In this document: in pieces, positions 1,071-62,079 of the stretch
Numbering within the stretch: the first letter of the stretch is position 1
How the letters are laid out: the number at the start of each line of letters is the position of its first letter
Virus record (IMG/VR): IMGVR_UViG_3300029906_000160
DNA length: 64,000 nucleotides
Direction: 5' to 3' (one strand)
DNA from: a virus
Lineage: Duplodnaviria; Heunggongvirae; Uroviricota; Caudoviricetes
The notes under the pieces: generated by a model
Databases searched by the model: none
Told to the model about the DNA's origin: nothing
The model's input: the letters and a program-made list of their open reading frames with translations, nothing else
Translations under genes and position numbers: made by a program

Positions 1071-1071
<1 letters not shown>
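337..1071 (-). CDS. calcineurin-like metallophosphoesterase
   Basis: motifs SDFHGH, AGDLEP, SGNHS, SHDAPYG, CGHLH; no in-frame TGA; Trp written as TGG. Confidence 0.8.
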
Positions 1072-2696
<1,625 letters not shown>

Positions 2697-4962: not shown

Positions 4963-5052
4963 GTCTTAGAGCAGGAGCTGAACGGGTCGAACGCTCACCT
5001 GAGGCTTTGGAGGCCCCCTTTACGGTTTTGAAGACCGCTGTGCTACCATTAC
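4963..5052 (-). tRNA. tRNA with anticodon UCA (reads UGA); tRNA-Trp-like backbone; atypical 25-nt variable region
   Basis: acceptor GGAGCUU/AGCUCC; D-arm UAGUGUAAUGGUAGCAC; anticodon arm GCGGU-CUUCAAA-ACCGU (E. coli tRNA-Trp has ..GGUCUCCAAAACCG..); T-arm GAGCG-UUCGACC-CGUUC; 90 nt. Confidence 0.6.
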
Positions 5053-5168
5053 ACTAAGCTCCTATTAAAATAAAGAACTCTCTATTTGCTTAGATTTATA
5101 ATCTCTCTAAATATTTGTTCTTTTAATTTCTAATACAAATATATAAAGAAATTTTTAATCTTACAAAT

Positions 5169-6437: not shown

Positions 6438-7118
6438 TTATTTATAATAAGCATTAAATGAACTTGCACTTATTTGTTCTATATGTGCGTTTTTTCTAAA
6501 TTCTTCAAGAGTTCTTGAATTACAGTAAGACATTGCTGAACGAAAATAACTAATAAAATTGTCACACCATCCAGCTAAAGTATATTTAATAGGAACAAGA
6601 GTTTCTATTCCTTCTGCTGTTTTTGTTGCTTCTCCACTTATTTCTGTTTGAGCTCTTTTTGTAGACATTCCATAATACTTACGTACTCTTTCGCCATTAT
6701 GATTAAATATAACTTTTCCACAAGCTTCTTCACTCATAGCAAATATCTTACCCAACATTACATAATCAGCACCAATTGCAAGAGCTTTGATTATTTGATC
6801 AAAATTAGAGAATCCTCCATCTGCAACTATTTTTGGAATAGATCTATAAGGACTGTAATAAATATATTTTTCTCCATCACAATTTTTTCGTTCTTTTCCA
6901 TTATACTCAGTTGAAACACTTACTGTATTCTTATGAAAAACTAATTTCTGAAGTAAAGAAACCATTGGATAATGAATACTCGAATTTGCCGAAGTAGTAC
7001 AATTGTGAACAACAAAATCATTAGCGATATATTGATGCTCTTTTTCAACTTCAATATCAAAAACCTCTGTAGATTGATACTTAATTTCTACAGAGGTTAT
7101 TTCTACAAAATTAATCAT
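6438..7118 (-). CDS. C-terminal split-intein half (IntC, 39 aa) fused to the C-extein of an IMPDH/GMP-reductase family enzyme
   Basis: N-term MINFVEITSVEIKYQSTEVFDIEVEKEHQYIANDFVVHN (intein blocks F/G ending HN) followed by CTTSAN (IMPDH catalytic-loop remainder); ADGGF..KALAIGADYVMLG TIM-barrel motifs. Confidence 0.8.
   Translation of the reverse strand: MINFVEITSVEIKYQSTEVFDIEVEKEHQYIANDFVVHNCTTSANSSIHYPMVSLLQKLVFHKNTVSVSTEYNGKERKNCDGEKYIYYSPYRSIPKIVADGGFSNFDQIIKALAIGADYVMLGKIFAMSEEACGKVIFNHNGERVRKYYGMSTKRAQTEISGEATKTAEGIETLVPIKYTLAGWCDNFISYFRSAMSYCNSRTLEEFRKNAHIEQISASSFNAYYK
7002..7118 (-). other. IntC split-intein segment
   Basis: blocks F and G; terminal Asn followed by +1 Cys. Confidence 0.7.
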
Positions 7119-8160
7119 ACATTAATTGTCTTATTTTATTTATTGTTTCTGGATTTTTAATATCATCTTTAGTTAAACGTAAAAATTTATATCCATTATC
7201 TTTAGCAAACTGTTCTTTTAATTGATCCCTTTCTTTTTCATCCTCTTTATGATATTTTCCTGTAGAATCATATTCGATTAAAACAGTTTTATTTATAAAG
7301 TAATCATAAATAACATATCCATCACTTAATTCAAACTTTTTTCCAAGTATAATTAAGTTTCCAATTTCAGGAAAATAAAATTTTAAAACTTGATAAAATT
7401 CAAATTCTTCATTAGAGTGAAGACCATAAGATAAATAAATATCTATTTCATCGCCATACAATCGTTTAAGATTTTTATAAACAGTTTCAGCAGATTTGGT
7501 TATTTTTTCATCATGTTTTTCGTTATAATATTTAACTAAAGAATGAATTGTATATTTTTGTGGATTTGCTTTAATCAAAAGATACATCCATGTATATGAA
7601 TTATTAGATTCTGTTTCGATAAAACCTTTACTCTCTACAACAAAATTATATCGATAAAAATCAGTTAATTCTGTGATTTCTTTTTCTGTACAAATTTCTA
7701 AAGCAATTCATACTTTTTTAAGAGTTCTTTTATCTATATTATATTGTTTTGCTACATCTATTAAAGGAGTTTCTTTATTAGAAAACATTTGAAAAGCTTC
7801 TGTAAAAGTTTTTTCATCATAACGATTCTTATACCATTGTTTTACATCAAAAGTATTCTTTAAAGATGGCTTTATTTTTTCTTTTATTTCTTGATTCGCT
7901 TGCTTAAGCATCCGCCCCATACAAGAATCTGTAGCATATTTATTAAATTCCCAACGCTTTCCTCCCGTACGTAAATGTAACGGATTTCCACAACCACAAG
8001 GGCATATAGGATGAACTCCGTTGTATCAAAATTTAACAATATAATCTTCTAATTCCATTTGATGATCTATTTTAATATGAGATCTCAATTTTGCTTTACA
8101 TGAACTTTCTTTTTCATATGTAAATTCTTTACCACAAATTTCGCATTTCAATGTTACCAT
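7111..8160 (-). CDS. free-standing homing endonuclease: N-terminal Zn-finger plus C-terminal Vsr/PD-(D/E)xK-like domain; 2 in-frame TGA read as Trp
   Basis: continuous 349-codon frame once TGA is sense (joins track ORFs 7111-7587 and 7708-7920 plus 7921-8160); CEICGKEF..CPCGCG; C-term VIYDYFINKTVLIEYDSTGKYH..DQLKEQFAKDNGYKFLRL. Confidence 0.65.
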
Positions 8161-8255
8161 ATTTTTAAAATTTTATAAGTTATACAATGTGCTATAGTTG
8201 TACCTCAACTACTAATACAAAAATAAGTATAAAATTTTAAAAATACAAATAAATG

Positions 8256-9788: not shown

Positions 9789-10358
9789 TTATATAACTTG
9801 CATATGAAGTCCCTTCATTATGTCAAGTGTTTTTTGATGCATTTCTGGATCATTAGATGCACAGCAATCACTATGTACTATAATTTCAGAACGAGTAAAC
9901 AAATTCTGAAAATTTAAAGCAACAGATAGAACACACATATTTGTTACAACTCCGCAGATATGGATTTCATATTCAGAATTTGGATCTAAACCAAATGGAC
10001 TTGCTAGTTTAAGACAATCATTTAAATTCCGAAAACCAAAAGCATCAACTTTAGCTATTTCACCAACCCGAACATTATCTACAAACTTTTTTAGTTCAGG
10101 AATTAGATTCCATCCTTCAGTTCCATATAAACAATGTGGAATTGGAAGATGTCGACCCTCTCTAGTTTGTGTGTATGTAGTATCACTATGTGTATCTAAA
10201 GTAAATATAACTGAAAGATTATCATCTACAAATTCATTTACTAGTTTAACAACATTAGGAACTATTGCTTTTGTATACTCATTACCAAGAACATTGTCGT
10301 TTATTAAAAAATCTTGCTGCATATCAACCACAACAAGAAATTTATTCTTTGTACTCAT
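9789..10358 (-). CDS. isochorismatase-family cysteine hydrolase (nicotinamidase PncA-like)
   Basis: VVVDMQQDF and catalytic-Cys motif CGVVTNMCV. Confidence 0.75.
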   Translation of the reverse strand: MSTKNKFLVVVDMQQDFLINDNVLGNEYTKAIVPNVVKLVNEFVDDNLSVIFTLDTHSDTTYTQTREGRHLPIPHCLYGTEGWNLIPELKKFVDNVRVGEIAKVDAFGFRNLNDCLKLASPFGLDPNSEYEIHICGVVTNMCVLSVALNFQNLFTRSEIIVHSDCCASNDPEMHQKTLDIMKGLHMQVI

Positions 10359-10722
10359 ATTTATTTAAATATAATGTTTTATTATTAAATTTAATTATTG
10401 ATCGAGTATATGGACGAGTTATTGGAATAACTGTTTCCACATATTTAGTTTCAGGAGTATCATAACATACAATTAATCTATTTTTAAATACTCCAGATAT
10501 CCATCCATTATAAAAAATATTATCTATTACAATTATTACATCATCATATAAGCTAATATTTTCTAATGTTTTATGATCTTTTATTTGTGGTTCTTCTTTA
10601 ATCCTCTTCCTCGTAAATAAACTCTTTATTTTTTCTACGAGATTCATTCTTTTTATGTTTTTTACTTGGATTTGATTTGTGTTTTTTAATTTTTTGAACT
10701 GTCGGCTGATAATCATCTTCAT
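10342..10722 (-). CDS. hypothetical protein
   Basis: ORF track. Confidence 0.45.
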   Translation of the reverse strand: MKMIISRQFKKLKNTNQIQVKNIKRMNLVEKIKSLFTRKRIKEEPQIKDHKTLENISLYDDVIIVIDNIFYNGWISGVFKNRLIVCYDTPETKYVETVIPITRPYTRSIIKFNNKTLYLNKYEYKE

Positions 10723-11265: not shown

Positions 11266-11831
11266 TTATTTTGTATATTTCTTTCGTTCTTTTCTTCCAT
11301 TACCTTTATTAGCACCTTTATACGTAGCAGTTAAAGAATGACAATTTGGACATAATAGTATTAAATTTTCTTCAGAATTATTTAAATAATTTCCATCTAT
11401 GTGTTCGACTTCTAATGGAATTTTATTAGTATATGGATTTGTTTCTCCTCACCCACATCTAGCACATTTATTATTATATTTTTTAAACAAATAACACTTT
11501 AAATAAGAACTAACTTGATACTCGCCTTTTAATCCTGTTTCTTTTCCCTCTTTTCAACGTTTTTCTCATTCCTTTTGTTCTCAATTTTGTTGACATTGGT
11601 GAGAACAAAATTTTAAGTGAGCTTTATGTAAATTCTGTCCACAATTAAGGCAAACGCCATAATCTTTTTCTTTTTGAGTTGTTAATAAAATATCTAATTT
11701 TATTGCTCATCTTTTTATAGTTCGTCAATTAACATTATATAGTCTTCCTATTTCTGCATAAGAAAGTTGTTGAACGTTAATTAAATTGTTTAATGTTTCT
11801 TTGTCAATCATTTTAAAAATCTACTGTAATA
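11266..11831 (-). CDS. HNH homing endonuclease with N-terminal HTH; 5 in-frame TGA read as Trp
   Basis: CARCGW..LEVEHIDGN..NLILLCPNCH; HTH LSYAEIGRLYNVNWRTIKRW; unreadable in the standard code. Confidence 0.75.
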
Positions 11832-12152: not shown

Positions 12153-12227
12153 GAGCGCCAGTGGGACTCGAACCCACGTAGAATGGCTTATGAGACCATG
12201 CTGGGACCATCTCCAGTCTACAGCGCT
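12153..12227 (-). tRNA. tRNA-Met/Ile2 (CAU)
   Basis: acceptor AGCGCUG/UGGCGCU; anticodon loop CUCAUAA; T-arm GUGGGUUCGAGUCCCAC. Confidence 0.6.
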
Positions 12228-12261
12228 ATATTGTATCGCATAAATGTTTATTTATAATATA

Positions 12262-12720
12262 TCAAAGAGTACCTTTACTCTTTATATTATATTTTTTCAT
12301 TAAATCTTTATAAGAAAGCCCAAGATGTTTATCGCTTCGAATTTGTTTTATTAATTCATTAGAATAAATTCTATTTGCTAACGCAGATTTCTTTATTCTT
12401 ACTTTTTCTGGAATATCAAACATATTATCAGAATTAGTTCCAATTTCAATATTTTCCTCTTTATTGTTTAAAGAATTTCCATCTAAATGTCTAATAACCA
12501 TATCTTTTTCATAAATCTTTTCTTTAAACTTTTTATATGCTTGAAATCTATGATGATATACCTTAATATTCTTTCCATTTAACTTAAAAGAAAAATATAA
12601 ATAAGGTTGTTTTCCTCTAGTTCCAACAATGTTGCCTTTTGGACTTGTAACAATTCCATCTTTAGAAATTACATAACCTTTATTTCAAGCTAATTCTTCA
12701 TAATGATTATAATTTACCAT
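12262..12720 (-). CDS. HNH (HNH_3-type) endonuclease; 1 internal TGA read as Trp; annotated stop is itself TGA
   Basis: YHHRF..VIRHLDGNSLNNKEENIEIGTNSDN; track ORF 12262-12501 extends upstream through a TGA to an ATG at 12720. Confidence 0.65.
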
Positions 12721-14510: not shown

Positions 14511-14585
14511 ATTGAACTCACAGTAGGATTCGAACCTACATCTTCCTATAATAATATAGGTGTTCTGTCATTAAACTACATGAGT
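14511..14585 (-). tRNA. tRNA-like element (T-arm UAGGUUCGAAUCCUA); identity unresolved (6-nt anticodon loop by hand)
   Basis: acceptor ACUCAUG/UGUGAGU with G:U pairs; canonical T-arm. Confidence 0.4.
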
Positions 14586-15744: not shown

Positions 15745-16954
15745 GTCGTATATTTTATTTTATAAGCTTAATGTTATAATATTCACAGAGAGAATTTAAA
15801 ACATTTCTTTTAATGTTAAATATTTCAAATAGTTTCTGTTTTGTCTTATATTTACTTCAAGCTTCTAATAAGTCTTCTTTAGAAACTATAGGATTTCCAT
15901 TTTCATCTAATATAGACCTCAATTTTAATCATTTAGCGTTACATTCGCGAGAACAACAAACACTTTTTCTATCTTGAGGTTTATATTCTTTCCCACAAAC
16001 GATACAAATTCGTTTTGGAACAGGTTGTTTATTATTTAAACCTAACTCTGTTTTAGTAGATGGAAGATTATATTGTCTACATCATCTTCTAACAGTATTA
16101 TCTGTAACTCCAAATTGTTTAGCGATATTACGAAAACTTCTAGTTTGAATTGCTTCTTTTAATCATTCTTTTGTCGGATATTCTAAATTTGCGTTTTCAT
16201 TATTCTTTAATCTAGATTTTTGTAAAGTATCTAATCTAGATTTTGTACTACATTCTTTAGAACAAAAATCAGATGTACCAGAAAACTCTTTACCACAATA
16301 CTTACATTTCTTAATTTTGTGTTTTACTATAAGCTGATTTTCTTTCTTTATATTTTTACCACAATAATTATCTGTTATTGCATGACAATTTGGACACAAT
16401 AGTTGTAAATTTTCAATTCTATTATCAGTATTAATTCCATTAATATGATGGACTTCTAATGGAATTTGTTGTCCTTCTCATTCTGTTTTATTACATTTTT
16501 CACATTTTCATTCTTTTAATCCAAATTCCACTAATCTAATTTTTAATTTAGATTTTTGATAATCTGAATTTTCTTTAAATATATCTTCTTTAGTATATTT
16601 CTTTCTAACTTTTTCTTTTGTATTATCTATACAAAAATGAGAAGTATCAATATTATATTTTTCTATAATTTTGTTAATACGAGAATAATTTGTATTTGTC
16701 GCTCTAATTCCTAAATTTTTACAAACATCGTTTATATTCTTACATTTTGGAATTAAATCAACAATAATTTGTTCATATTCTTGTTTAGCTTTTTCTCGTT
16801 CGATTATCTTTTCTCTATCTTTTTGTCATTTAGTACCAAGATAATAAGCTACTAATGATTTTGTAGAATTACATTTTGATGCAATTTGAGTATAACTTAA
16901 TCCTTGATTATGTAATTCTTTAAATAATTTATATTTTTCTTCAGCTTCAGTCAT
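15745..16954 (-). CDS. HNH homing endonuclease with multiple HTH domains (about 402 aa); 7 in-frame TGA read as Trp
   Basis: LEVHHINGINTDNRIENLQLLCPNCH; C-terminal HTH ..NTVRRWCRQYNL with W=TGA; track shows only a 78-aa fragment (16163-16399). Confidence 0.75.
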
Positions 16955-21271: not shown

Positions 21272-22306
21272 TTAAAATACATAATTAATAAATGAAGTTT
21301 TCTTTCTTCTAAGTATAATTTTTACATTATGTTCTTTAAGATGATAGATACGTTCATCTTTTGTTACCACATCTGGAATATATAAATCAGGACTAAAATA
21401 GAAATCTAACCAGTCTCCATCTTTATCCTTCTGGACATTTGAAGTACACCAAAAACCACTATCCCATCTTCCATCATCTTGTAGTTTTACTGTAGTTTTA
21501 TATATAGGTACTCCATCTTCTTCTTCAAATGCTTCGTAATAAGAAGATTCCATAAGAACATTCATATAACGAACAACTTGCTTTGGAGACTCTTTAAATA
21601 GATTAGAATCAGAACAAATTGACATAATTACATCAAATGTACATTCAGTCATTTTCTGAGAAATCTCTACAAGTTCTTCAATCCAATCCTTATTATCAAG
21701 AAGATCATTTCCTATATCTTGAACAGTATCTTCATCTAATCCAGTAAACTCCTTAAGAAAATGAATTCTAGACGGACGATTCTTCATCATAGAATTTATT
21801 CTATAAAATTCATTTGCAGTAAAGATAAAGATGTGATGAGTGTTATATGGACCATCGAGAAGACTTAAAAGTTTATTAGAATCTGCATTTTGTCCATCGT
21901 AAAGTTTTTCAAACTCATCAATAAGAATAACGCAATTTCCAAGAGCGGGGTCAGTTAAGAATGAGATGAACTCTGGATCGTCATAACCTTCAGATACAAC
22001 AATAACTGGAAGATTAAGAAGATTTGCAATAGCTCTTGCAGTGATTGTTTTACCCGCACCTTTAGTCCCAACTAACAATACTCCTAAATTGCGATCTTTA
22101 GAATTATATTTGGCGCAAACTCTTTTAGCAAATGGTACTATATCTCCATAAATCTTATTTGGAATCTGAATATCATCTATTAAATGAAGATAATAAGAAT
22201 TACTATCTTTATTAAATAAAATAGAATATGTTCCAAGTGGCAATTTATTTGGCAGACTTCCAAAATTGCCAAGAATAAAATTCTGTCCGTTTTGAATAAG
22301 TTGCAT
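21272..22306 (-). CDS. AAA+ ATPase (MoxR-like partner of the vWA protein)
   Basis: Walker A GTKGAGKTITARAIA; Walker B ILIDEFEKL. Confidence 0.65.
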   Translation of the reverse strand: MQLIQNGQNFILGNFGSLPNKLPLGTYSILFNKDSNSYYLHLIDDIQIPNKIYGDIVPFAKRVCAKYNSKDRNLGVLLVGTKGAGKTITARAIANLLNLPVIVVSEGYDDPEFISFLTDPALGNCVILIDEFEKLYDGQNADSNKLLSLLDGPYNTHHIFIFTANEFYRINSMMKNRPSRIHFLKEFTGLDEDTVQDIGNDLLDNKDWIEELVEISQKMTECTFDVIMSICSDSNLFKESPKQVVRYMNVLMESSYYEAFEEEDGVPIYKTTVKLQDDGRWDSGFWCTSNVQKDKDGDWLDFYFSPDLYIPDVVTKDERIYHLKEHNVKIILRRKKTSFINYVF

Positions 22307-22309
22307 AAT

Positions 22310-23200
22310 TTAACTAATTTCTTCTATTTCGTGAGACACGGTATCTAAATTAAGAAAAAATTGAACTTTTTCATATTTTCTAGGCAATCATATATTATCT
22401 TTTTCTGCATAAATTTTTTCAACAAAAAATTTTATTTCTTGAGAATTACAATTACGAATATAAGAACTACATCCAGTTTTTGTTTGTCTTTGAATAACTT
22501 TTGTTTTTAAACCAAAGTATTCTAAAAGCTTTTGCATTCCAGTTCAATCCTGATTATATGAACTAGTAATACTAAATGTTGTACTAAAAGTAGTTTTCTT
22601 AGACTGAATATAATAACATCCATCACCGTCTATATAACCTCTCAAAAAGTAAGATCAATATTCTTTTGGAACATAGTCTATAATTTTTTGATGTGATTCT
22701 ATGGATTTACTATATTTGCCTAATTGCTGTAATTGTTCTGCAATATCAATTCGATTTGTATGAATTTCAATTTGAGGTTTTCTGTTTTTTCTTATTTGAT
22801 GATAAATATTAAATTGCCCTAACTTTTGAAATATAGGAAATACTTTATCTCCGTCTTCTTGAACAATTTTAATAGATAAACCTCCTTTTTTAGAAATATA
22901 TCCATCTGCTCAAAAATATCCTAAAAAATATGCTAATTCTTTTGGAAACTTTGTTTTAGAAAAATCAATAGTAAAATCAAAATGTTTGTCTTGCTCACCA
23001 TTGAATGTTAAACTCTTTATTTCTTCCTCTGTGACATTAATTGGATGTTTGTTCGTTCCAATTTTTAAACGAGACCCCATTCCGACAATACTAGCAACAG
23101 TTCTATCTAATTTTTCTCCACAAACGATTGCTCCAAATTTTTTAAGATTCTGTTTTAAAAATTCAATTTCATCTTTAGTTCAGGATTTATTTTGTTTCAT
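22310..23200 (-). CDS. LAGLIDADG homing endonuclease (two motifs), free-standing; 5 in-frame TGA read as Trp
   Basis: LAYFLGYFWADGYIS and WSYFLRGYIDGDGCYY; 297-codon continuous frame only with TGA as sense. Confidence 0.75.
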
Positions 23201-23278
23201 ATTTGTTAAAACTTAAAATTAAAAAATCTCTTATTTTTATTAACAAATATATGACAAAATTTTTAAATTTCCAAATAT

Positions 23279-23737
23279 TTATAACTCTGAAACTTGATGT
23301 GATACTGTATCGATAACAAATGCGCGTCTACAATCTAAATCTACAAAATTTTCTAAAATTATGGGATTTTCCTTCGTTTGGGAATGTCCGAAAACCTGGA
23401 ATAAAGTATCGTCACAATCAGATTCACGAACATCATGCCAAATTGGAGAACCAGTAGAATACCAACCACCTCTTTCCCAACTCATTTCCCAAAATATTTC
23501 AGGAGATGCTTTATATATCTCATTTAGATAAATATCTGCATCAGTTTCTGGAAGTTTTAGATCATGACGCTTTAACCAATCTTTAGATACTCCTGCATGC
23601 GTGAACAGAGTATCATCAATTTGTTTAGCTATCTGAAAAAACTCTATATCTTCAGTATATATTTGATGTAATTCATCCCACCTAAAAGAATCTATTCTAG
23701 ATGCATTATAACTCGAATAAATATAGTGCCAATCCGT
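23279..23737 (-). CDS. C-terminal half of a PPP-family Ser/Thr phosphatase (lambda-PPase/ApaH-like)
   Basis: DTLFTHAGVS, VFGHSQTK motifs; frame opens right after a TAA with no ATG; 1 TGA read as Trp upstream of the first Met. Confidence 0.6.
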   Translation of the reverse strand, partial: TDWHYIYSSYNASRIDSFRWDELHQIYTEDIEFFQIAKQIDDTLFTHAGVSKDWLKRHDLKLPETDADIYLNEIYKASPEIFWEMSWERGGWYSTGSPIWHDVRESDCDDTLFQVFGHSQTKENPIILENFVDLDCRRAFVIDTVSHQVSEL

Positions 23738-23829
23738 TTATGTTCAATGTAAATCGTTAGTTTACACCCGTTATTAACTGCTTATACTTCATTTTCGTAT
23801 AAGACCTGACTATATCTTCACCTTCGACA

Positions 23830-24702
23830 TTACTCGTTAAGGGCGGAGCATTCCGAAGCACTTGCTTCTACCACCATTTCAGGAATAGTCGATGAACCTT
23901 CAACCTCATTAGAGGAAGCTTGGCTGCTGATTACCATCTCAGGCGTCCCAGCAATTAACTCCGTTTCACTTAATGATTTCTCATTAAGAGCACAAATTAT
24001 TTCTTCAAATTTTTTCTTTTTTCTTGGAAGGAAAACTGTTGCGTCTTTATATATAAAATCATAAAACTTTTTAATATTTTGTCTACCAGAATATTCCATT
24101 GTACAAATATCGGAATTAATTCTACGTGAGTTTAACTTAGTTTGTTTAAATCCTAGATTATCAATTAAATATTGTTGATAAGCTGAAATAAAAGAAACGT
24201 ATCCGGTAATATTAAATTTAACATTATGAATAATACGTTCTCTACGTCCCTCTTTTCGTGTGGGATCGTTTACTCACATTTTCTTTCTTTTTCCATTTCA
24301 AATACAACCGTCTCCATCAAAATAACCTCGCATAAAGTGAGAAATTAAATCTTCTGGGACTTGTCATTCTGTTGGTCAAGACAAATTTTTAGTTTTACGT
24401 TTAACACATCCTTGTTTTTCTAATGATTCTGCAATATGTTTTCCGTATACATAAAATCGAATTTGATCCTCATGATTTTCATTTGTATCTTTTCTAATAA
24501 GTAATGGATAATCCGATTTCATTTCTTCTTTTAATTTATCAACAACACATCTATCTTCAATTTGAAGTGATATTGATATCTCTCCAGTAGTTGGATGTTC
24601 ATGATTACATCCATCTGCATACAATAATCCAAGAAAATATGCCTTTTCTGGCGTATTTATCTCATCAAAATAAGTTTCATCATAATTATGTTTTCTTTTC
24701 AT
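23830..24702 (-). CDS. LAGLIDADG homing endonuclease between the two phosphatase halves; several in-frame TGA read as Trp
   Basis: KAYFLGLLYADGC and HFMRGYFDGDGCIW; joins track ORFs 24376-24702 and 23830-24099. Confidence 0.7.
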
Positions 24703-24765
24703 ATATTTATAAATTTAATTGATTTAACTTTACAAATATACAAATATTTATTATGATTTCCAAAT

Positions 24766-25014
24766 TTATTTTGATGATTTCCAAAAATTTGATAATTTAT
24801 GATTACCTAGTAAAAGAGTGACTCTATCAGGGTTTTGATCCTTAAAATTTAGTATATCTAAAAGATATTGTATAGAATTAGGATATTCATCTTTCCATTC
24901 GTATGGATAAGGATCAAGATAATCTCCTAAAAATATAATTGAATCATTCCACTTTTTTACAGCATCTTTCCAAAACTCACGAAGATGTAAATCGGGAATT
25001 ATTAGCGCTTTCAT
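24766..25014 (-). CDS. N-terminal half of a PPP-family Ser/Thr phosphatase
   Basis: IIPDLHL, FLGDYLDPYP, LLLGNHK (GDxHG / GDxxDRG / GNHE motifs). Confidence 0.7.
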   Translation of the reverse strand: MKALIIPDLHLREFWKDAVKKWNDSIIFLGDYLDPYPYEWKDEYPNSIQYLLDILNFKDQNPDRVTLLLGNHKLSNFWKSSK

Positions 25015-34430: not shown

Positions 34431-34466
34431 AGTGGAGATATCGGGAATCGAACCCGAGTCTTTTAT
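34431..34466 (-). other. tRNA-like 3' fragment (T-arm UCGGG-UUCGAUU-CCCGA plus acceptor) bordering a 750-nt ORF-free region
   Basis: no matching 5' half found by hand; 9-nt direct repeat TGGAGATAT also at 34683. Confidence 0.35.
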
Positions 34467-35211
34467 TAATCCTATATAGTTTTTATTTATATGCTTAGTT
34501 AATTTTTCTAAACTAACAAAATAACTAAATTGATTAAAGAGTGTTTAGTAAAACTCTGAATTTAAAGAATTATAATGAAAAGAGCTATGCGAAACTATAA
34601 TTAAAAGGCATAGTGGGAGTAAAGAACTCTTTGAGTGTCTTCACTACTTTTGAGAAAAGATTTTTAATTCCGTTTATTTTTGGAGATATTTAAAGTAATC
34701 ACTTACTGCATAAAACATATACCAAATCAATAAAATCAAATCCAAGCATCCCCAATGCAAAGATAAGAAAAAGTTTTAAATATACAAATAAAAATGGATA
34801 CTAAGTATAAATAATTCGCCTGCCTTTCTAATTTCAAAATTGGACGCGCTATATAGCTATTTTATAAATATACTTAGTATCCAAATAAAAATGGAAGATC
34901 TGACTGTATGTTTAAGTAACCCAAAATGCTAGTTACATAACGCATAATCCCTACAGCTAGGCTCTATTCTCTTAAATAGACTTTAGCACCAGATCTTCCA
35001 AAAAATTGGTTATAAGGTTACCAACCCAGCCTAGGCAACTTTAATCTAGAATTCAGTTGCTTCGTTACTTCAGACGCCAAATAATATTGTCTGAGAGTCA
35101 CCTCTATCTTTAATATGTATATAAGGAAGCTGAGGAAGCTATTATACACATCCGGATCTTTATATACTTCTCCTAGTATAATCCGGCTATACTAAGAGGA
35201 CTTATAAAAGA

Positions 35212-44746: not shown

Positions 44747-45312
44747 GAAAACATTTGGATGTATTCAATCTGGAGAAAGTTCTAAAGATATTATATATAA
44801 TGGTACTTTATCTATGCCTTCTTATGTAAGAGAACCTATCACTCCTATTATTGATCAAGGTACTCTCGGTTCTTGTGTATCTCAATCTTTATATGAATTA
44901 TATGCTTTTTATAAAAATTTTAAGCATGAAAAACTAGATATTTCTCCAACTTATAGCTTTGATTTAAGAAAAGACAAATCAATTAATGGAATGCAACCGC
45001 GTGAAGCTCTTAATATTCTTCGACACAATAATAAAATACAATCTTATGCTCGTATTAATAATTCATTTGCTTTAAAAGACTCTATTATTGTAAATGGAGG
45101 AGCACTTATTGCACTTCCTGCTAAATCAGATGATCCAAATTTTTGAGATGGTTCATCCAATTTAGGTTATCATGCGGTTTGTGCTTATGGATTTGATAAA
45201 GATTTTATTTATTTTAAAAATTCTTGAGGAGTTAATTGAGCACAATCTGGGTGCTGAAAATTTCCATGAATTGATTTTACTCAAATTTTAGAAATATGAA
45301 CAATATTAACAT
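44745..45312 (+). CDS. papain-like cysteine peptidase (C1A family); TGA read as Trp
   Basis: catalytic Cys DQGTLGSCVSQS, His GYHAVCAYGFD, Asn motif NSWGVNW with W=TGA; track fragment 44745-45146. Confidence 0.7.
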
Positions 45313-45362
45313 AAAAAAGGAGACTCTCTTTCGAGGGCCTCCTTTTTTGTTTTATTATATAT
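45313..45362. terminator. putative bidirectional terminator between convergent genes
   Basis: AAAAAAGGAG-loop-CUCCUUUUUU. Confidence 0.4.
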
Positions 45363-45363
45363 T

Positions 45364-47805
45364 TTAATTTCCCATATAAAAATTATATCTTTCATAGACT
45401 TTTTTCAGCTGTTCTTCAGTTAGCTGTTCTTTAAAGGCTAGGAACTTATAGAATTTAAAGGTTGAAGAACCGTTAGATCCATCACTAGCAGTTCCAGGAG
45501 CAACACATCCTATGTATTTGGAAGTGTTAGTAACTCTACTATCACCTACTATAGCTACAGTAGTTCTTTTACCTCTAAGTGATGCAGCTGTTATTGTAGT
45601 GTTCTCCTGTCCATTTATATAGCATACAGAACCTTCTGGAACATCATAATAATATGCTAACTCAGTTCCTTCTTTGGATTCATTTATATCAATATTACCT
45701 AAATTTCCCTGACAATAGTATTCTGCTATATTATTGAGAGTGTTAGGAGCTTCAAATTCCATAATTAAGGTATTCCAAGTATCTCTATTAGTACTACCAT
45801 CTTTATTTAGAATATTGAAATAAGGAGAGCCATCCATACCTTTAAACTGGAAGAAATCAAAGAAGTTAGGAACTTGTTCAAATACAGTCTTTTCATTGCT
45901 GTAGAGAGCTAAAACTGACGTATTATAGTCTTCTCCTTTAAAAAGAACATATCCAGGATAATCAACAGAAACAAGTCCAGTATCTTCGTCTTTAGTAAAG
46001 ATAGTGTGGCTTACTATATTATCGCCAGCTGAGCTATATAGATGAGCGTCTACACTGGCACTATATAAATCATCTCCTTTAAAATTGGTTCTAAATGGAG
46101 GATAAACAACAATCTTATCATCCTCAAAAATAGGGTTTACTTTCTTTTGAACATTCCAAGCATATGCACAAGAAGATGAATCAATTTTATTTTTATTGAT
46201 TAGAACTGCGGGAATACTTTGCTCGTTACTCCAAGAAGTTAAATCTCCTACATTAGGATCATACCAAGCCCAACCAACATGAGTAGACAAGTCAACTACA
46301 GGAAAACAGATTATATAGAAATCAGTATTTGTTGCTATAAAATTTCCTTCAGCGTCTTTATCACAGAAAGAGCTTGGAATTTGGATATAAATATTATTAT
46401 TCTCAGTAAGAGAATGAACATTCGTTAAATCTATAACATTCATTCCTGAAGACAAAGCGTAATAAAAATCAACATTTTCCCCCGTATAACCGTCATAACA
46501 AGAAAATGATGCATCTGTAGAGAAGGTTCTACCAGAAGGAGTAGAAACATAAACACTAATTTTAGTACCCAATCCTCTAAAAGAAGACCCTGGGCAGCTA
46601 AAAAGTATCATGTTATAAAGACTATTAGTTGGACTTCCTGGAGGAGTAATTTTTGTTATATGATAGATTCCGTCTGATGGAGTATCATATTCACACCTTG
46701 AAGATATAGAACTAAAAATATTTGTAGCTCTTGCTACATTACTCAACTTATTATAATTCTTCAGTTGTGCATACAAGCCATTACCTGAATGGTCACAAAG
46801 CTGCCAAGCGCCAAATCCATAAGAATCTACATTAAAAGCACCATGATAATCTTTAGAAACATCAAAATAACATGCTGCATTGGGTAGTACATTCTTATTA
46901 TAATAATCTATGAGATAGTCAAGAGGAAGATCTCGATTTCATAGAATAAATCTGCTTACACAGTTAAGGTCATAATCAGGATCAAAAGAAATTACATTGT
47001 TATTTGACCCCTTTGAGCCTTTAGATAAAATTCCATTTGAAGAAATTGTTGACCATTCTTTAGAATTATAAATCAAAACTCCAGAATTAGGAACTGAGCT
47101 ATAGTTACCAAAAGAAAGTACAGAAGAGACACCTTCAACTGGAACTCTGATTTCAGTGCTATATGCTGAAACGCTGACAACCGTAGGAATAGTTAGGTCA
47201 GGAGCTAATGTTGAAACATTAGAAGGATTAATATCCTTGAAAACACAGATAACAGAGAACCCTGAATCAGGTTTGGTTCTCGCAGCAGGTAAACTGAGAG
47301 AAGCATAGTTGCTAGGTAAATTTATCTTACTGTTCTCATCACAGATAGGAAACTGTTTAAAATATAGATAACTTCCAGTTGGATCCCAAGCAGGATCTGA
47401 AGGTTCAAAAACATGTCTAAAGGTCGTTTTCCCTGAAGGAAGAATAATATTACAAGTTCCTCCAAATACTTGAATCTGTTCACCAGTATTATCTACTATA
47501 TATCCATTGCAATAATATGGATCAGTGGGAAGATTACCTATTGAAGTAAACTGAAAGAGAACATCTGAATTGAGTCTACTATATGTGGAAGTAATTGGCA
47601 AATTATATCCATTAAATGACTTGGAAAGTACATGAATAGAAATAGAATCAACAGATTGCTCTGTTATCTCAAAAGTGTCATCTGCTACTACTTGTGAAAG
47701 ATCAAATACATAATTGTTAGCATCACTAACATTCATATCTGAAGCGTCTACATCAAGAACAGGGGCAGGAAATGAATTATTAAGTAAATTACAAAAAGTA
47801 CTCAT
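45364..47805 (-). CDS. tail fibre protein (about 813 aa) with a single in-frame TGA at 46939-46941
   Basis: track ORFs 46939-47805 and 45364-46776 are in the same frame; 54 sense codons between them; no ATG or RBS for the downstream part. Confidence 0.6.
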
Positions 47806-47870
47806 AACTAAAACAATTTTATAAAAATATTTCCCCTCTAATAGAAACTACTAAAAGAGGGGAATATTAA

Positions 47871-49178
47871 TTAAAACTCACCCCAAACTCCAAGGTTGTT
47901 GATTATAGAAACTACATATCTATGATTGGCTCTTGTTATAGGTGCAACATCATTAACCCACTTTATACCATCTGCATAAGTGATGTTATAGAGAGTTGCT
48001 CCAACAGTAATATCATAGACTTTCTCTACAGTTGTTGCATTAGCAGGAATATTATAATCAGCAGTAAGTGTAGGTACTGTAGTATATACAGTTTGTTTAG
48101 ACTCTATAGTGTTAATAGAAGTTTGAAGCCCAGTTATAACAGTCTGAAGAGTTTGAGCATCTGCTGAATTAGTACCATCAAAACCACCTAATCCATAAAT
48201 GTAATGGTCTCCATTAATCTTAATCTCGTGAGCATTTTTTCTGTTAGTATTGGAAGAACCAATACCTACAGAATGAATTACCCTAACAGTGGAAGTGAAA
48301 GAATCATAAGACTTATTATACTTTCCTTCTGCATGTTCACATTCTGTTAAAGCCTGAGTGTTCTGTCCTTCGGCGTGAGAATTACCACCTGTAGCATTGG
48401 TGTTGGAACCTTCTGCATGAGAATAATCACCTGTAGCATTGGTGTTGGAACCTTCTGCATGAGAATTACCACCTGTAGCAGTGGTACCCCTGCCTTCTGC
48501 ATGAGAAGAACCGCCTGAAGCAGTGGTGTCGGAGCCTTCTGCGTGAGAATAACGGCCTTCAGCAGTGTTTCTGAAGCCTTCTGCATGAGAACAATCGCCT
48601 GTAGCAGTGGTGCTATCGCCTTCAGCATGAGAACAATAGACTGTAGCATTGGTCCGGGAACCTTCTGCATGAGAATTATTACCTGTAGCTTTGGTCTCGA
48701 TGCCTTCTGCGTGAGAATAACGGCCTGAAGCTACATTGGCATTACCACCTTCATAACTGTTAAAGATTTCACCGGTACCATTAGAATTAGGGTCTACTTT
48801 ACCAACTCCAGTAGCCTTAGGAAGAATCTCATTGATTGCACCAACTACAGTCTTATCTGTGGTGTTGAGAGTCTCATCAGTTGCATTCTGTTTATCAGCA
48901 AGTGCCGTATCTAAACCCGTAATCTTAGACTGAGGAAGTTCAGGAATATCGTCAGAAACAAGTGATTTCTTAGAAACTGAAACAACACCATTCTCTTGGG
49001 AAACAGAAGAAATTACCTCACCTGTGTCAGCAGATTGACCAGAAGAATCAAGAGCATTAATTGCTTTAGTAATATCAGCAGATACATCAATGCTATCAAT
49101 CTTACTATTAAGGGCTTTACCTTGTGCTGCACTTAAAGGAAGAGTAGTCTCATCAGAGTTAAGAGAGTTAATTACCAT
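47871..49178 (-). CDS. tail fibre protein with 11 tandem SHAEG-type repeats
   Basis: 435 aa; repeated ..SHAEG.[NT]T.ATG.. Confidence 0.6.
   Translation of the reverse strand: MVINSLNSDETTLPLSAAQGKALNSKIDSIDVSADITKAINALDSSGQSADTGEVISSVSQENGVVSVSKKSLVSDDIPELPQSKITGLDTALADKQNATDETLNTTDKTVVGAINEILPKATGVGKVDPNSNGTGEIFNSYEGGNANVASGRYSHAEGIETKATGNNSHAEGSRTNATVYCSHAEGDSTTATGDCSHAEGFRNTAEGRYSHAEGSDTTASGGSSHAEGRGTTATGGNSHAEGSNTNATGDYSHAEGSNTNATGGNSHAEGQNTQALTECEHAEGKYNKSYDSFTSTVRVIHSVGIGSSNTNRKNAHEIKINGDHYIYGLGGFDGTNSADAQTLQTVITGLQTSINTIESKQTVYTTVPTLTADYNIPANATTVEKVYDITVGATLYNITYADGIKWVNDVAPITRANHRYVVSIINNLGVWGEF
48320..48730. repeat. about 39-bp tandem repeat array (11 copies) inside the tail-fibre gene
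   Basis: direct reading; explains spurious overlapping ORFs 48347-48670 and 48543-48728. Confidence 0.75.
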
Positions 49179-49901
49179 ATTTTCAGTAAGAACCGAATGA
49201 GTAGTAACATTCTTAGATAAAGTACCAGAAGTATTAGTAATTGCTATCTCATTGAGCGTAAGACCTAATACAGAATCAAGTAAGTAGTATAAAGTAGTAA
49301 CATTACCAAGTATTCTGATAGATACTGAAACACTACCATTAGATATTGTTCCTACAATAATTCTATTATCTTGTACAGTGGCATTTAGATTATCTATACC
49401 GCCAATTGCAGTAGAAATTGATTCTGAATCTTCAGCAGAAAGAAGATTGGTAAGATTAATTTCATAAGGTACTACTAAATTTTCAGTAGCGTTAGTGATA
49501 TCTTGTATTGTTGCCGCTTTATTGGATTCTGCATTATATTCTGTGTTAAATGAAATTACATTTTGTTTAGAATCAACAGAATTCTTTAATTCATTAACTG
49601 CGTTTACGAGATTATCTTTTATCGTAGTTTCTAAAAGAGAAACATCTCCTATTGTGGATAATTTTTCAAATTCTTCGTCTGAAACACATTTAAAAAATTG
49701 TCCATGTGTTCAAATTTCTTTTGCATCTTGTATGAACACAATTGAAGTTCCAAGAAAATCACCAAAAGTTATACCGTTATCTGTTGATTCAGCATAACGA
49801 CTATTAAAATTGGATTTAGATTTAAAATGGATAAGTTTGTTATTAATTGTTGCCATTTTATAATATTTAAAAATTTTAAGTAATGAGATTGTTAGTCTTT
49901 A

Positions 49902-52394
49902 TTAATTTGTATTTATGTCCTCAATTAAGGACTGTAGTTGAGAAATAGTAGTATTTAAATTATTAATCTGACTTTCTAAAGACGTTTTCATTGTATTAAA
50001 TTCATCTTTAGTTATATACTTAGATAAATCAATGTTCTCTGGTTCTATACTAGTAATAGTTACCTTAATGTTACTATTTCCTTCAATAATAGTTCCATCT
50101 AAATTTATAAGTATTTCATATTTAGATACAACGTCATTGTTAGTATTAAGGCCAATAAATACTAATTTAATTTGATTTGCAGATTCAAATGCGGCATACT
50201 GAACAGGCATTCTGTAATAATAAGGATTGCCCATCAGCATAATACCATATTTAATATATTGAATTCCTTTATTAGCTATTTGCTTTTTTAATGCAGCTAT
50301 ATCTGAAACTCCAAACCATTCTAAAATTTCTTCTTGAGTATATACTCTATCTTCAGGACCATCTGATCCTCCAGAAGTTCTTATTGGAAAATTAACTTCA
50401 ATAGGTATTAATTCTATATCAGATTCAACAACAAGAGCTTCCTTTCCATCTGGAGTTTCAATTGTTGGTTTATCTGAAGAATTTAAATTAAGATGTACTT
50501 TAGATGTACCTACTTCAACTTGTTTTTCTTCATTATCTAATCCAGCATTATATATTCTTGCTCCAAGTAAACTAGAATTAGATTCACTTCCGCCAAAGTC
50601 TCCAAATACTTGTCCATTAGATGGAAGTACTATATTTTTAGTATTGTTATAATCAACCCAATCTACTTTAGATGTGATTTCTTCTTTAGTTGCTAAATTA
50701 CTAATATCAGATTTCTTAGCAAATGGATATTCATCAACAGCTAATGCAAAGGTTTCATTGACATACTGAATTTGATAAATAGTAGGAACAGTTCCAATCA
50801 TGAACATTAGATTAGCTGCACCGTTACCACCTGAAATATTACCAGTAGCGTGAATACAAGATTTATAATCCCCAGCAGAATTTCTATCCACAATTATTGT
50901 CTTATTCTCTCTAATAATTTCAATAAGACTTATAAAATCTATACCAAGAGCAGCTTCTATATTTGCACTTGATTCACCTGTTTCGAGTTCTGTTAAACCC
51001 TTTGTTTCAAATACATTGGGAACTTCTTCCTTTGTGACAAAATCAGATACATCTGGAAGTTCAGATTTAAGAGCATAATCATTTAATTCTTCCTTAGTCG
51101 CATATTCAGATAAATCAATATCTTCTGGCTCTATACTAGTAATAGTTACCTTAATGTTACTATTTCTTTCAATAACAGTTCCATCTAAATTCATGATCAT
51201 TTCATATTTAGATGCAACATCATCACGAGTATTTAATCCTACAAAAACTAACTTAATTTGATTTGCAGATTCAAATGCAGTATATTCGATAGGCATTTTA
51301 TAATACATTGGATTGCCAGATAATGAAATACCATAACGTAAATACATTTGACTTCCACGTGATATTTTTTGTTTAAGTTCAGGAACGCTAGTTACTCCAA
51401 ACCAATCAAAAATTTCTTCTTGTGTATAAACTTTATCTTGAAGTGATCGGATTGGAATATTAACTACATTAACTAATTCATCAGTAGTAGCAATTGTTTT
51501 CTTACCAGTAGAAGTTTCAATTGTAACATCAGAATCAGTGTTAATATTAGTATGTACTTTAGATGATCCAAGTTCGAGTTGTTTTGTACCATCGTAAACA
51601 GCAGCTTTAGCAACCGTTGCGTTTTCATCTCCATAATTACCAAGATAAGAACCTCCTTCTGGAAGTATAACATTTATGTTAGATTGTGTTTTCTCATCGT
51701 AAGCATATGGAATTTTATCTTTTTCAAGTCTACGAACTTCTGAATCACTATATTGAATCTTAGTTAAAGTATCTTCTGCAAGATTGATTATTTTATTAGG
51801 AGATTCCTCTATAATGCTAATACCTGCTCCAGGAAGTATATTTTTGGATTCCAAATTAGCTAATTTAGAATTTATTTCGTCATCTGCATCTTTTCTTTGA
51901 TCTATTTCTGCAACTAATGTTTCAGATAATTGTTTTGTGGACTCATTAATGACCACTAAACTATTATTAAGATTTTCATTAATAGAGTTAATAGATTTTA
52001 CAAGATTATTATTCAACGTCGAAATATCGGAATTAATTTTATCAGTACTTTCTTCAACTTCATTTTTTGTTGCATATATTGCTGCAACTTCGTCTTTAAA
52101 ACCTTCAAATTCTTCTTTATCAACGTAATCACCAACATCTTGTTTTTGGTTTACTTCATCATGGAGTTCGTTAATTGCATCAACTATACTTTTATTTAAA
52201 GTTTCAAGTCTATGATCGATTTTTGGTTGAGCTGCATCTAATTTTTGTTGTGCGTTTTCATCGAAAGCAACAATGATTTTATCAAATTCTTCTTTAGAAC
52301 CTGTAAATCCAGCTTTAACCGCATCATCATATGTTCCTTGAGTTAATCTTTGATCTATTTCTGTACCTGTGTATTTTGATTTATAAAACGCCAT
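49902..52394 (-). CDS. large tail fibre / adhesin, 830 aa, with an internal duplication of about 120 aa
   Basis: DNA 50030-50400 nearly identical to 51110-51480 (..NIKVTITSIEPE[DN]IDLS..). Confidence 0.65.
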   Translation of the reverse strand: MAFYKSKYTGTEIDQRLTQGTYDDAVKAGFTGSKEEFDKIIVAFDENAQQKLDAAQPKIDHRLETLNKSIVDAINELHDEVNQKQDVGDYVDKEEFEGFKDEVAAIYATKNEVEESTDKINSDISTLNNNLVKSINSINENLNNSLVVINESTKQLSETLVAEIDQRKDADDEINSKLANLESKNILPGAGISIIEESPNKIINLAEDTLTKIQYSDSEVRRLEKDKIPYAYDEKTQSNINVILPEGGSYLGNYGDENATVAKAAVYDGTKQLELGSSKVHTNINTDSDVTIETSTGKKTIATTDELVNVVNIPIRSLQDKVYTQEEIFDWFGVTSVPELKQKISRGSQMYLRYGISLSGNPMYYKMPIEYTAFESANQIKLVFVGLNTRDDVASKYEMIMNLDGTVIERNSNIKVTITSIEPEDIDLSEYATKEELNDYALKSELPDVSDFVTKEEVPNVFETKGLTELETGESSANIEAALGIDFISLIEIIRENKTIIVDRNSAGDYKSCIHATGNISGGNGAANLMFMIGTVPTIYQIQYVNETFALAVDEYPFAKKSDISNLATKEEITSKVDWVDYNNTKNIVLPSNGQVFGDFGGSESNSSLLGARIYNAGLDNEEKQVEVGTSKVHLNLNSSDKPTIETPDGKEALVVESDIELIPIEVNFPIRTSGGSDGPEDRVYTQEEILEWFGVSDIAALKKQIANKGIQYIKYGIMLMGNPYYYRMPVQYAAFESANQIKLVFIGLNTNNDVVSKYEILINLDGTIIEGNSNIKVTITSIEPENIDLSKYITKDEFNTMKTSLESQINNLNTTISQLQSLIEDINTN

Positions 52395-60384: not shown

Positions 60385-60546
60385 ATACCGAGATAACTTG
60401 AAATCACAAGTATCGTAGAGCATAGAAGATGAGCGTTAAGAGAGCAATAATTCTTCCAAGAGTGTGGGCTCCATTATATGGATGAAAATATATGCCGAAC
60501 TATAAAGAACAACAATTTATAGAATTATGAGATAAAAAGCTCATAA

Positions 60547-60996: not shown

Positions 60997-61022
60997 ATTA
61001 TTAACTAGTAATTTTTATTGTT

Positions 61023-61922: not shown

Positions 61923-62079
61923 ATTGCGAAAGGCTAGTTATCACCGTAACGCGTAGTAATTGAATAAATATAATATTACCAAGAGTGCTCGACATCTAGA
62001 ACAGATGAAAATGTACGCTGAACTATAGAGAATAAGAATCTATAGAATTTAGAGATAAAAAACTCTAAAGATAACAAAA

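Follow-up and report, generated by a model that had tools for sequence, protein, structure and literature searches.

Background

Among crAss-like phages, some groups, especially Zeta (145–192 kb), recode their late genes at TGA or TAG and carry suppressor tRNAs, the Delta and Zeta groups combine such alternative coding with an unprecedented density of group I introns that contain LAGLIDADG genes, and the metallophosphatase (MPP) is listed among the conserved genes (Yutin et al. 2021, PMC7886860). The homing endonuclease genes of Zeta phages have been described as variable in a 2025 paper (PMC12386605). In Agate phages, a group I intron within an early gene encodes an endonuclease that favors TGA as its Trp codon, and it was proposed that these in-frame stops delay the production of the endonuclease until late infection (Borges et al., bioRxiv 10.1101/2021.08.26.457843). 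Here, we analyzed a stretch of 64,000 nucleotides from a tailed phage (IMG/VR record IMGVR_UViG_3300029906_000160; the whole stretch is called the window below), which belongs to a distant crAss-like phage of large size (~175 kb) with a Bacteroidota host, and focused on its MPP gene and the two LAGLIDADG endonuclease genes (HE1 and HE2) found at positions 22310..25014. The best explanation of the locus as a whole, to which we assign a probability of roughly 90%, is that a conserved MPP gene bears two independent selfish elements, a group I intron that encodes HE1 and an intron-less cassette that carries HE2.

An interrupted metallophosphatase gene

All genes of the locus lie on the minus strand. 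The open reading frame (ORF) at 25014..24766 reads MKALIIPDLHL...FLGDYLDPYP...LLLGNH and continues with KLSNFWKSSK to its own stop, 11 codons into an insertion, and the frame at 23737..23279, which follows directly after a TAA and has no start codon, encodes ...FTHAGV...VFGHSQ... up to a stop. An initial annotation of the window had located both sets of motifs correctly and had taken them for the N- and C-terminal halves of one gene, separated by a group I intron with an intron-encoded endonuclease or else by a fracture, and had suggested a search with the Rfam model RF00028. A focused Rfam scan of positions 23600..24900 placed such a match at 24008..23786 (minus strand, model positions 1–253), with 69.5 bits against a gathering score of 50 and an E-value of 3e-17.

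Relatives of the locus were found through a large protein database, followed by retrieval of the contigs that encode the protein matches, while viral contigs searched with back-translated peptides of the spliced MPP and of HE2 yielded no related loci. In the intron-less relatives L004–L006 (~71–174 kb), DNA homology runs up to window position 24800 and resumes at 23734 (blastn against L004), and the inserted DNA is therefore 24798..23735, or 1064 nt. Group I chemistry needs a U as the last exon base and a G as the last intron base, and here the 5′ splice site would follow U24799 and the final base of the intron would be G23735 (omega G). The boundaries thus rest on the agreement of three independent lines, namely protein alignment, the intron-less allele and splice-site chemistry. 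With the slash denoting the splice site, the predicted junction of ligated exons in the MPP mRNA is GGTAATCAT/GATTGGCAC, and the uninterrupted L004-type gene reads GGTAATCAT/GATTGG at the insertion point.

Exon 1 (24799..25014) extends from the ATG at 25014 to the CAT at 24801..24799, which encodes the His of GNH, and exon 2 (23279..23734) from the GAT at 23734..23732, which encodes the Asp of GNHD, to the TAA at 23281..23279. Joined, they encode a 223-aa protein with a Pfam Metallophos domain (PF00149; 42.7 bits against a cut-off of 21.5, E-value 1.1e-10) and 1173 database homologues; PF00149 is carried by homologues as well. The LLLGNH/DWHY junction is gapless against 16 homologues, uninterrupted homologues are 223–231 aa long, and the best of them (P0001), which L004–L006 encode, is 85% identical to the spliced MPP. 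The "GNHK" motif of the initial annotation included the first codon of the intron (K), the mature motif being GNHD.

An intein was rejected as an explanation for the insertion, which has a stop after 11 codons, a promoter-like motif and an ATG of its own, and no Hint domain by Pfam.

Intron structure and relatives

The first helix of the predicted ribozyme, P1, is formed by exon CAU and intron AAA (24801..24796) pairing with UUUGUG, the internal guide sequence (P1 3′ strand, 23991..23996, minus strand), and includes a U24799–G23993 wobble at the splice site. All seven introns have this guide sequence unchanged, immediately before P2. The P1 loop (24795..23997) holds a promoter-like motif and most of HE1. 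In L012 the intron lacks an ORF and is ~265 nt long; the sequence across its 5′ splice site reads GGTAATCAT/AAAATATAATTTGTGCT…, CAU/AAA pairs with UUUGUG in the same way, with U-G at the splice site, and P1 is a hairpin of 6 bp closed by a loop of 6 nt, GGTAATCAT/AAAATATAATTTGTG. Alternative P1 pairings that involve AUGAU stretches close to the intron's 5′ end were discarded, as they offer no U-G wobble, their position is not kept in the relatives and the ORF-less intron lacks them.

The helices of the ribozyme core (23747..23988, minus strand) were drawn by hand and tested on an alignment of related introns (A2). They comprise P2 (23988..23969, with four compensatory pairs), P3 (23963..23958 with 23849..23844, five compensatory pairs), P4 (23953..23948 with 23930..23925), P5 (23944..23933), P6 (23924..23922 with 23898..23896), P6a (23918..23901), P7 (23890..23886 with 23812..23808), P7.1 (23885..23872), P7.2 (23868..23855, four of five pairs compensatory), P8 (23842..23821, five compensatory pairs), P9 (23803..23781, two compensatory pairs) and P9.1 (23767..23747, four compensatory pairs). 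Over seven distinct related introns, 95.4% of the cells in P2–P9.1 are paired, and compensatory changes occur at 26 of the 65 pairs of these 12 helices. When partners were slid by 1–3 columns, only 32–45% of cells were paired and 0–6 pairs were compensatory, and none of 500 shuffles reached the observed paired and compensatory values. P7 never varies and is therefore uninformative for covariation. The presence of P7.1 and P7.2 between P7 and P3′, a mark of subgroup IA, assigns the intron to this subgroup. Taken together, the model match, the covariation and the intron-less allele support the reading of the 1064-nt insertion (23735..24798, minus strand) as a subgroup IA group I intron within the MPP gene, as the first of the two options in the initial annotation had it, with the intron-less allele agreeing to the base.

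That annotation's other option, a fractured gene or pseudogene, holds that the halves are never joined, being either dead or translated as two associating polypeptides, and that the insertion consists only of a free-standing endonuclease gene. It would fit the stop of exon 1 within the insertion and the missing start codon of exon 2, the C-terminal half appears as a protein of its own (P0050) in the output of some gene callers, and a scan of the whole window with Rfam (gathering threshold, default filters) reported tRNAs only and missed the intron. On the other hand, the insertion holds a complete, covarying group I core precisely on its 3′ side, the boundaries combine a U before the 5′ splice site and a G before the 3′ splice site with an in-frame GNH/D join, and exon 2 has neither a start codon nor a ribosome-binding context. 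Moreover, the exons are 83–90% identical to intact alleles and free of stops and frameshifts, and a plain endonuclease insertion would not leave an ORF-less intron copy such as that of L012. Given the core and the exact boundaries, we reject a fracture as highly improbable and retain the group I intron.

A search for the conserved core motif recovered seven more viral contigs from IMG/VR (L009–L015), with the intron at the GNH/D site in each of the five in which this site was checked (L009–L013). Furthermore, the intron together with its endonuclease gene is 69–73% identical at the DNA level to a segment of the crAss-like phages cr114_1 (NC_055897) and cr125_1 (NC_055900), where it occupies the GNH/D site of a very different MPP.

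The intron-encoded endonuclease HE1

HE1 (23830..24702, minus strand) is a double-motif LAGLIDADG endonuclease of 290 aa (Pfam LAGLIDADG_3, 1.1e-7; PHROG 4645 endonuclease, 1e-49), in which both motifs (LGLLYADG and RGYFDGDG) are intact and keep their acidic residues. The ORF contains four in-frame TGA codons (24378..24376, 24366..24364, 24300..24298 and 24276..24274) and no TGG, TAA or TAG, in line with the initial annotation, which had noted a double-motif ORF between the two halves that uses TGA as Trp. Its last ~55 codons overlap the core from P1′ to P8, and its stop (TAA, 23832..23830) lies in the P8 loop. At the DNA level HE1 is 73% identical to the gene of a "mobile intron protein" in cr114_1; the endonuclease ORFs of cr114_1 and cr125_1 end earlier, in the P6 loop, HE1 being 32 aa longer.

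In the proposed mechanism, the transcript would fold so that P1 forms (CAU and AAA with UUUGUG), followed by the P2–P9.1 core, and the ribozyme would join the exons into an mRNA for the intact 223-aa enzyme. By analogy with other intron endonucleases, HE1 would cut intron-less MPP alleles of co-infecting relatives at GNH/D, and repair would copy the intron in. Alleles free of both elements are present in L004–L006, and L007 is free of the element at the HE2 site.

Two further observations concern this gene and its surroundings. The 5′ part of the P1 loop (24733..24790, minus strand) contains repeats resembling the exon 1 end plus P1 hairpin (GGAAATCAT... twice), which overlap the promoter-like motif, and a comparable repeat (CTTGGTAATCAT) is found at ~740..800 of L007; these could be scars left by the entry of the endonuclease cassette into an ORF-less intron. 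In addition, the intron-less relative L004 has a related LAGLIDADG gene elsewhere (9838..10398), with a 46-nt match to window positions 24353..24308 that covers the second LAGLIDADG motif, and endonuclease content thus differs among close relatives, as reported for Zeta-group phages.

The HE2 cassette at the 3′ end of the metallophosphatase gene

HE2 (22310..23200, minus strand) is a second double-motif LAGLIDADG endonuclease, of 296 aa (Pfam LAGLIDADG_3, 4.7e-15, and LAGLIDADG_1; PHROG 4645, 6e-26). Both motifs (LGYFWADG and RGYIDGDG) are again intact with their acidic residues kept, and the gene has five in-frame TGA codons and no TGG, TAA or TAG. The initial annotation had described it as a free-standing gene next to the phosphatase; an ORF is indeed present and no intron surrounds it (an Rfam search of 22200..23400 gave no group I match), but the gene is inserted inside the MPP 3′ end and comes with a substitute for that end.

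This anatomy follows from comparison with relatives. In L007 and L008, which have the intron and lack HE2, the MPP ends …GATACAGTATCTCACGAAATAGAAAAAATTAGTTAA and the start of the AAA-ATPase follows immediately. In the window, the last 33 nt of the MPP gene (23279..23311, minus strand), which encode DTVSHQVSEL and a stop, include a substitute end, and homology to the HE2-less L007 ceases at 23298. The displaced original 3′ end is found at 22310..22345 (minus strand): GATACCGTGTCTCACGAAATAGAAGAAATTAGTTAA encodes DTVSHEIEEIS and a stop, corresponds to the end of the unbroken MPP gene in L007 and, as there, continues into the start of the ATPase gene; the homologue P0003 also has the C-terminus DTVSHEIEEIS. 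The two ends share a 14-nt duplication, 22345..22332 repeating 23311..23298, and the first copy is followed by the different MPP ending (QVSEL and stop), a promoter-like motif and HE2. HE2 has no stop of its own and reads in frame into the second copy. The element-free 3′ end of L004 and L007 (...GATACAGTATCTCACGAAAT...) can be compared with the substitute end of the window (...CACATCAAGTT...).

The same arrangement recurs elsewhere. HE2 homologues are 285–286 aa long, end in ...FFLNLK or ...FFLNLN and are kept at full length at 71–88% identity. All contigs with such a homologue have it between the MPP and AAA-ATPase genes, with a divergent MPP end upstream and a remnant of the displaced resident end downstream, which measures 36 nt in the window, 42 nt in L016 and ~120 nt in L017 and L018. 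Relatives with and without HE2 exist at one locus. We read the HE2 region, from its sequence comparisons, as the footprint of intron-less homing, in which an endonuclease gene travels with a replacement for the end of its target gene. A cassette made of a short substitute MPP end, a promoter-like element and HE2 would have entered the last codons of MPP, which would keep a complete reading frame, with its original last 11 codons becoming the tail of HE2. Because the anatomy of the cassette explains the region, no RNA splicing is needed here. A His-Glu pair of the HE2-free alleles is replaced by His-Gln or His-Lys in each of the three alleles that bear HE2. One may speculate that this change marks the recognition site of HE2, and it is a candidate for conferring immunity.

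Class of the phosphatase

The metal ligands of metallophosphatases (D-x-H, GD..D and GNHD or GNHE) are present in the spliced protein, and its membership in the metallophosphatase superfamily, as judged from motifs and profile matches, is secure. The initial annotation went further and named a PPP-family Ser/Thr phosphatase, of which only the superfamily level could be kept. The motifs PDLHL, GDYLDPY and GNHD depart from the PPP signatures GDxHG, GDxVDRG and GNHE, as the PPP-specific Gly, Arg and Gly are absent. The best matches among solved structures are PP1 and PP2A, which are marginal (E-values from 6e-4 to 2e-3), as is the match to the PHROG "NinI-like serine-threonine phosphatase" (1e-3), and membership in the PPP family is not established.

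TGA usage in the endonuclease genes

The window encodes a tRNA(UCA) and has blocks of genes, including both parts of TerL, with in-frame TGA and hardly any TGG. Together with TGA-rich structural and packaging genes and a replication block in the standard code, this is the pattern of TGA-to-Trp recoding of late genes. The 24 late ORFs, including both TerL parts, contain 66 TGA and 13 TGG codons, in comparison with 5 TGA and 105 TGG in the 46 non-endonuclease ORFs of the block to which MPP belongs, labeled early from its gene content, strand and standard coding. The five endonuclease genes of this early block (two LAGLIDADG and three HNH) have 24 TGA and no TGG (Fisher p = 6e-22 for Trp codons against the other early ORFs). 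The HNH genes are located among tRNA genes on the minus strand, at 11266..11811 (6 TGA), 12226..12720 (2 TGA) and 15755..16954 (7 TGA), each with 0 TGG. The phosphatase exons have 10 TGG and 0 TGA. The TGA/TGG contrast between endonuclease and phosphatase that the initial annotation had pointed out is therefore real, and its source is the late code of the phage, in which the endonuclease genes are written.

The reading frames of HE1 and HE2 are not due to chance, given that they contain no TAA or TAG and the other two frames of each stretch contain 13 to 25. The Trp of DGDGCIW, after the second LAGLIDADG motif, is encoded by TGA in HE1 of the window and by TGG in six orthologues, and HE1 of the nearest relative (L007) has one TGA and two TGG; TGG thus seems to have been converted to TGA in place. 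HE2 homologues have 4–5 TGA each, and the MPP genes adjoining them are open in the standard code.

These data also bear on the possibility that the in-frame TGAs are true stops, the endonuclease genes being decaying relics and the intron and cassettes immobile remnants. Homing endonuclease genes commonly degenerate after fixation, the standard code breaks each of these genes into pieces, and the ORF-less intron copy indicates that loss of the ORF is possible. Decay would, however, hardly produce 24 TGA but no TAA, TAG or frameshift in five genes of a genome with 30% G+C, with 13–25 TAA/TAG in the other frames. The TGAs fall on Trp positions of the orthologues, including the conserved Trp after the second motif, and none of the five genes uses TGG. 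The phage has a tRNA(UCA) and late genes, TerL among them, that are rich in in-frame TGA, and HE2 homologues at 71–88% identity are full length with their TGAs. We consider decay to have very little chance of being correct and keep to genes that are read through TGA as Trp. Still less credible is a recent import from a source using genetic code 4 (fungal mitochondria, Mollicutes), which would suit the sharp contrast with the TGG-only host gene and the prevalence of LAGLIDADG genes in fungal mitochondrial introns that read TGA as Trp, but not the crAss-like affiliation of the nearest HE1 relatives with TGG at the aligned Trp positions, the in-place conversion indicated by the closer relative with one TGA and two TGG, the shared TGA bias of three unrelated HNH genes in the block, the TGA code of the phage's structural genes or its suppressor tRNA.

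With the TGA codons read as Trp, the TGA-only endonuclease genes would be fully translatable only once the tRNA(UCA) is active, i.e., together with the late genes, and the endonucleases are probably made only late in infection. Until then, ribosomes would halt at codon 109 of HE1 (24378..24376), ~380 nt before P1′, leaving the core free to fold and splice.

Two other genes show mixed usage. An ORF at 7111..8160 (minus strand), with a zinc-finger-like N-terminus and a DUF559 (Vsr-like endonuclease) domain, has two TGA and three TGG codons and a promoter-like motif at 8249..8218, and may be a mobile endonuclease midway in recoding. TerL is in pieces within 59575..63261 (plus strand): its N-terminal part (59575..60384) and C-terminal part (62119..63261) flank a third LAGLIDADG gene (61023..61922) with four TGA and one TGG. 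PHROG 6681 profile positions ~188–345 were not located, and an Rfam search of 60200..62300 gave no group I intron.

Promoter-like motifs

Promoter-like motifs of the Bacteroidota type (TTTG ... TAnnTTTG) precede both LAGLIDADG genes of the locus: TTTGGAAATCATAATAAATATTTGTATATTTG at 24733..24764 (minus strand), inside the intron and upstream of HE1, and TTTGGAAATTTAAAAATTTTGTCATATATTTG at 23244..23275 (minus strand), upstream of HE2. The 64-kb window has just two copies of the pattern TTTGGAAAT-N(10-20)-TANNTTTG, one before each of these genes, against an expectation of 0.04, and both copies take the form TTTGGAAAT-N15-TATATTTG. The HE1 motif recurs in the intron of L007, and the HE2 motif is kept upstream of the HE2 homologues in L016, L017, L018 and L019. 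A looser pattern of the same type has 12 matches in the window against 2.7 expected, and these precede, among others, the suppressor tRNA (5167..5136), a tRNA-His, the DUF559 gene and divergent late operons. By consensus match, the motif would be a candidate promoter.

The tRNA(UCA) and other RNA genes

The presumed TGA-to-Trp suppressor is a 93-nt tRNA(UCA) with an extra arm, encoded at 4971..5063 (minus strand; ARAGORN; Rfam tRNA, 52.4 bits). Its minimum-energy fold is five-armed, with CUUCAAA in the anticodon loop, and the extra arm, between the anticodon and T arms, consists of a 5-bp stem and a 7-nt loop, CUCCAAA, which reads U-CCA-A in the register of an anticodon loop. A search of viral contigs with only the UCA arm and the T loop fixed retrieved 79 distinct sequences (loci L020–L114), 58 of which have an extra hairpin with a 7-nt loop. 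In 37 of these 58 the loop reads N-UCCA-NN, and as these loops sit on 31 different stems, the loop is conserved while the stem covaries. Many of the tRNA(UCA) genes adjoin a normal tRNA-Trp(CCA) gene, ARAGORN labels those with the extra arm as tRNA-SeC, and no published description of them was found in the searchable literature. From its loop sequence, the extra arm may act as a mimic of the Trp anticodon for TrpRS; if so, it could explain how phage UGA suppressors are charged and why such tRNAs are often missed or mislabeled by tRNA finders. An identity as Ser suppressor or tRNA-Sec, suggested by the long arm and G73, seems less likely, as the backbone and anticodon arm are tRNA-Trp-like and the TGAs align with conserved Trp.

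Two more RNA gene candidates were noted in the window. ARAGORN predicted a tmRNA-like gene at 34432..34753 (minus strand; tag ...PFNYSFA and stop) with a promoter-like motif directly upstream (34788..34758), and made similar predictions in the phage loci L028–L030, L040 and L041; Rfam reported no tmRNA in the window. A tRNA-like gene at 14514..14585 (minus strand; Rfam tRNA, 49.2 bits) has an odd anticodon loop ("ta") and received no assignment from ARAGORN.

Genomic setting

Contigs of relatives measure 170–185 kb. The closest named relatives of the C-terminal part of TerL in a protein search are Crassvirales (26–28% identity), and TerL alone placed the phage near this order, protein searches with the ATPase and MPP leading to unrelated phages. 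A DNA search of positions 45300..52500 against a phage collection gave no match. Within the standard-code block, a 541-aa ORF (1071..2696, minus strand) resembles a GroEL-type chaperonin by eye.

Discussion

Several points weigh against the proposed reading of the locus or parts of it. P1 is short (three exon and three intron base pairs) and invariant in every copy, hence it has no support from covariation, P10 is weak, and the intron escaped the whole-window Rfam scan. The sequence analysis shows the RNA family and structure of the intron, its exact boundaries, the intact frame after splicing, the cassette anatomy and the codon pattern; from these we infer splicing, endonuclease activity and timing, as well as cleavage sites, promoter use and any benefit of TGA codons, and the early label of the MPP block comes from gene content, strand and standard coding. 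The residue inserted at TGA is deduced from alignments, and the unusually long extra arm of the suppressor makes its charging uncertain. Finally, neutral drift could account for the exclusive use of TGA, the genes being tolerated or in any case expressed late, and in cr114_1 and cr125_1 the intron persists without TGA in an endonuclease ORF that reads into P6.

The last two points concern in particular the idea that TGA exclusivity is a selected "code lock" that delays the nucleases, spares the ribozyme core and relies on an undescribed five-armed suppressor with a Trp-loop arm, perhaps for the host TrpRS. The standard-code copies of cr114_1 and cr125_1 imply that such a lock is not required for the persistence of the intron, and we regard it as a tentative, rather doubtful extension.

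In practical terms, the MPP genes of the window phage, cr114_1 and cr125_1 should each be recorded as a single spliced gene, exact coordinates included, in place of "MRE11 nuclease" fragments. The relatives also provide a natural series at one site, from no intron through an ORF-less intron and a standard-code endonuclease to partly and fully TGA-recoded ones, with the neighboring HE2 cassette likewise present or absent. This series makes two published ideas testable, namely the timing of selfish nuclease expression through stop-codon recoding and the spread of free-standing endonucleases by means of a cleavage-resistant replacement gene end. As neither idea is new, a specialist may find the result solid yet unsurprising, and a good test case; the tRNA found along the way may matter more.

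The main ideas are already published: both crAss-like phages rich in introns and a TGA-recoded endonuclease within the intron of an early gene have been described. New are this intron family, its exact anatomy and its spread across very different MPP genes, along with the series of ORF-less, standard-code, partly and fully recoded introns, the codon bias in free-standing endonuclease genes and the structure of the HE2 cassette.

The closest described counterparts are cr114_1 and cr125_1, which share the intron family, the insertion site and the endonuclease family with the window. They differ in an MPP gene without any remaining DNA-level similarity, in TGG where HE1 of the window has TGA (all four Trp), and in the earlier end of the endonuclease. 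In their public records the MPP halves are separate proteins and no intron is annotated. Agate phages resemble the window phage in that the intron endonuclease in a standard-code early gene favors TGA over TGG. The window phage, in contrast, belongs to a different clade (distant crAss-like), its bias covers every endonuclease gene of the early block, including the free-standing LAGLIDADG and HNH genes, and its intron ORF overlaps the ribozyme core, so that stops would also keep ribosomes off the catalytic RNA.

The introns of the phage T4 genes td, nrdB and nrdD (sunY) belong to subgroup IA2 and encode endonucleases. Like the window intron, they are of subgroup IA with P7.1 and P7.2, sit in the gene of a metabolic enzyme at a conserved codon of the catalytic site, and have an endonuclease ORF that is located in a peripheral loop and expressed separately from the host gene. 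Their endonucleases are GIY-YIG or HNH enzymes encoded in P6 or P9 loops, whereas the window has a LAGLIDADG gene in the P1 loop, and in T4 the delay depends on late promoters and RNA structure rather than on the genetic code.

For HE2, the nearest parallels are the mobile endonuclease ORF of Allomyces atp6, which reportedly comes with a duplicated C-terminal coding segment, and the seg and mob genes of T-even phages, which are free-standing homing endonucleases. As is said of these systems, HE2 involves neither intron nor intein, and a divergent copy of the gene end keeps the host gene intact while the original end is displaced. The HE2 cassette differs from them in that its endonuclease ORF continues in frame into the displaced end, and in that it resides in a phage, beside an intron whose unrelated LAGLIDADG gene shares its promoter-like motif.

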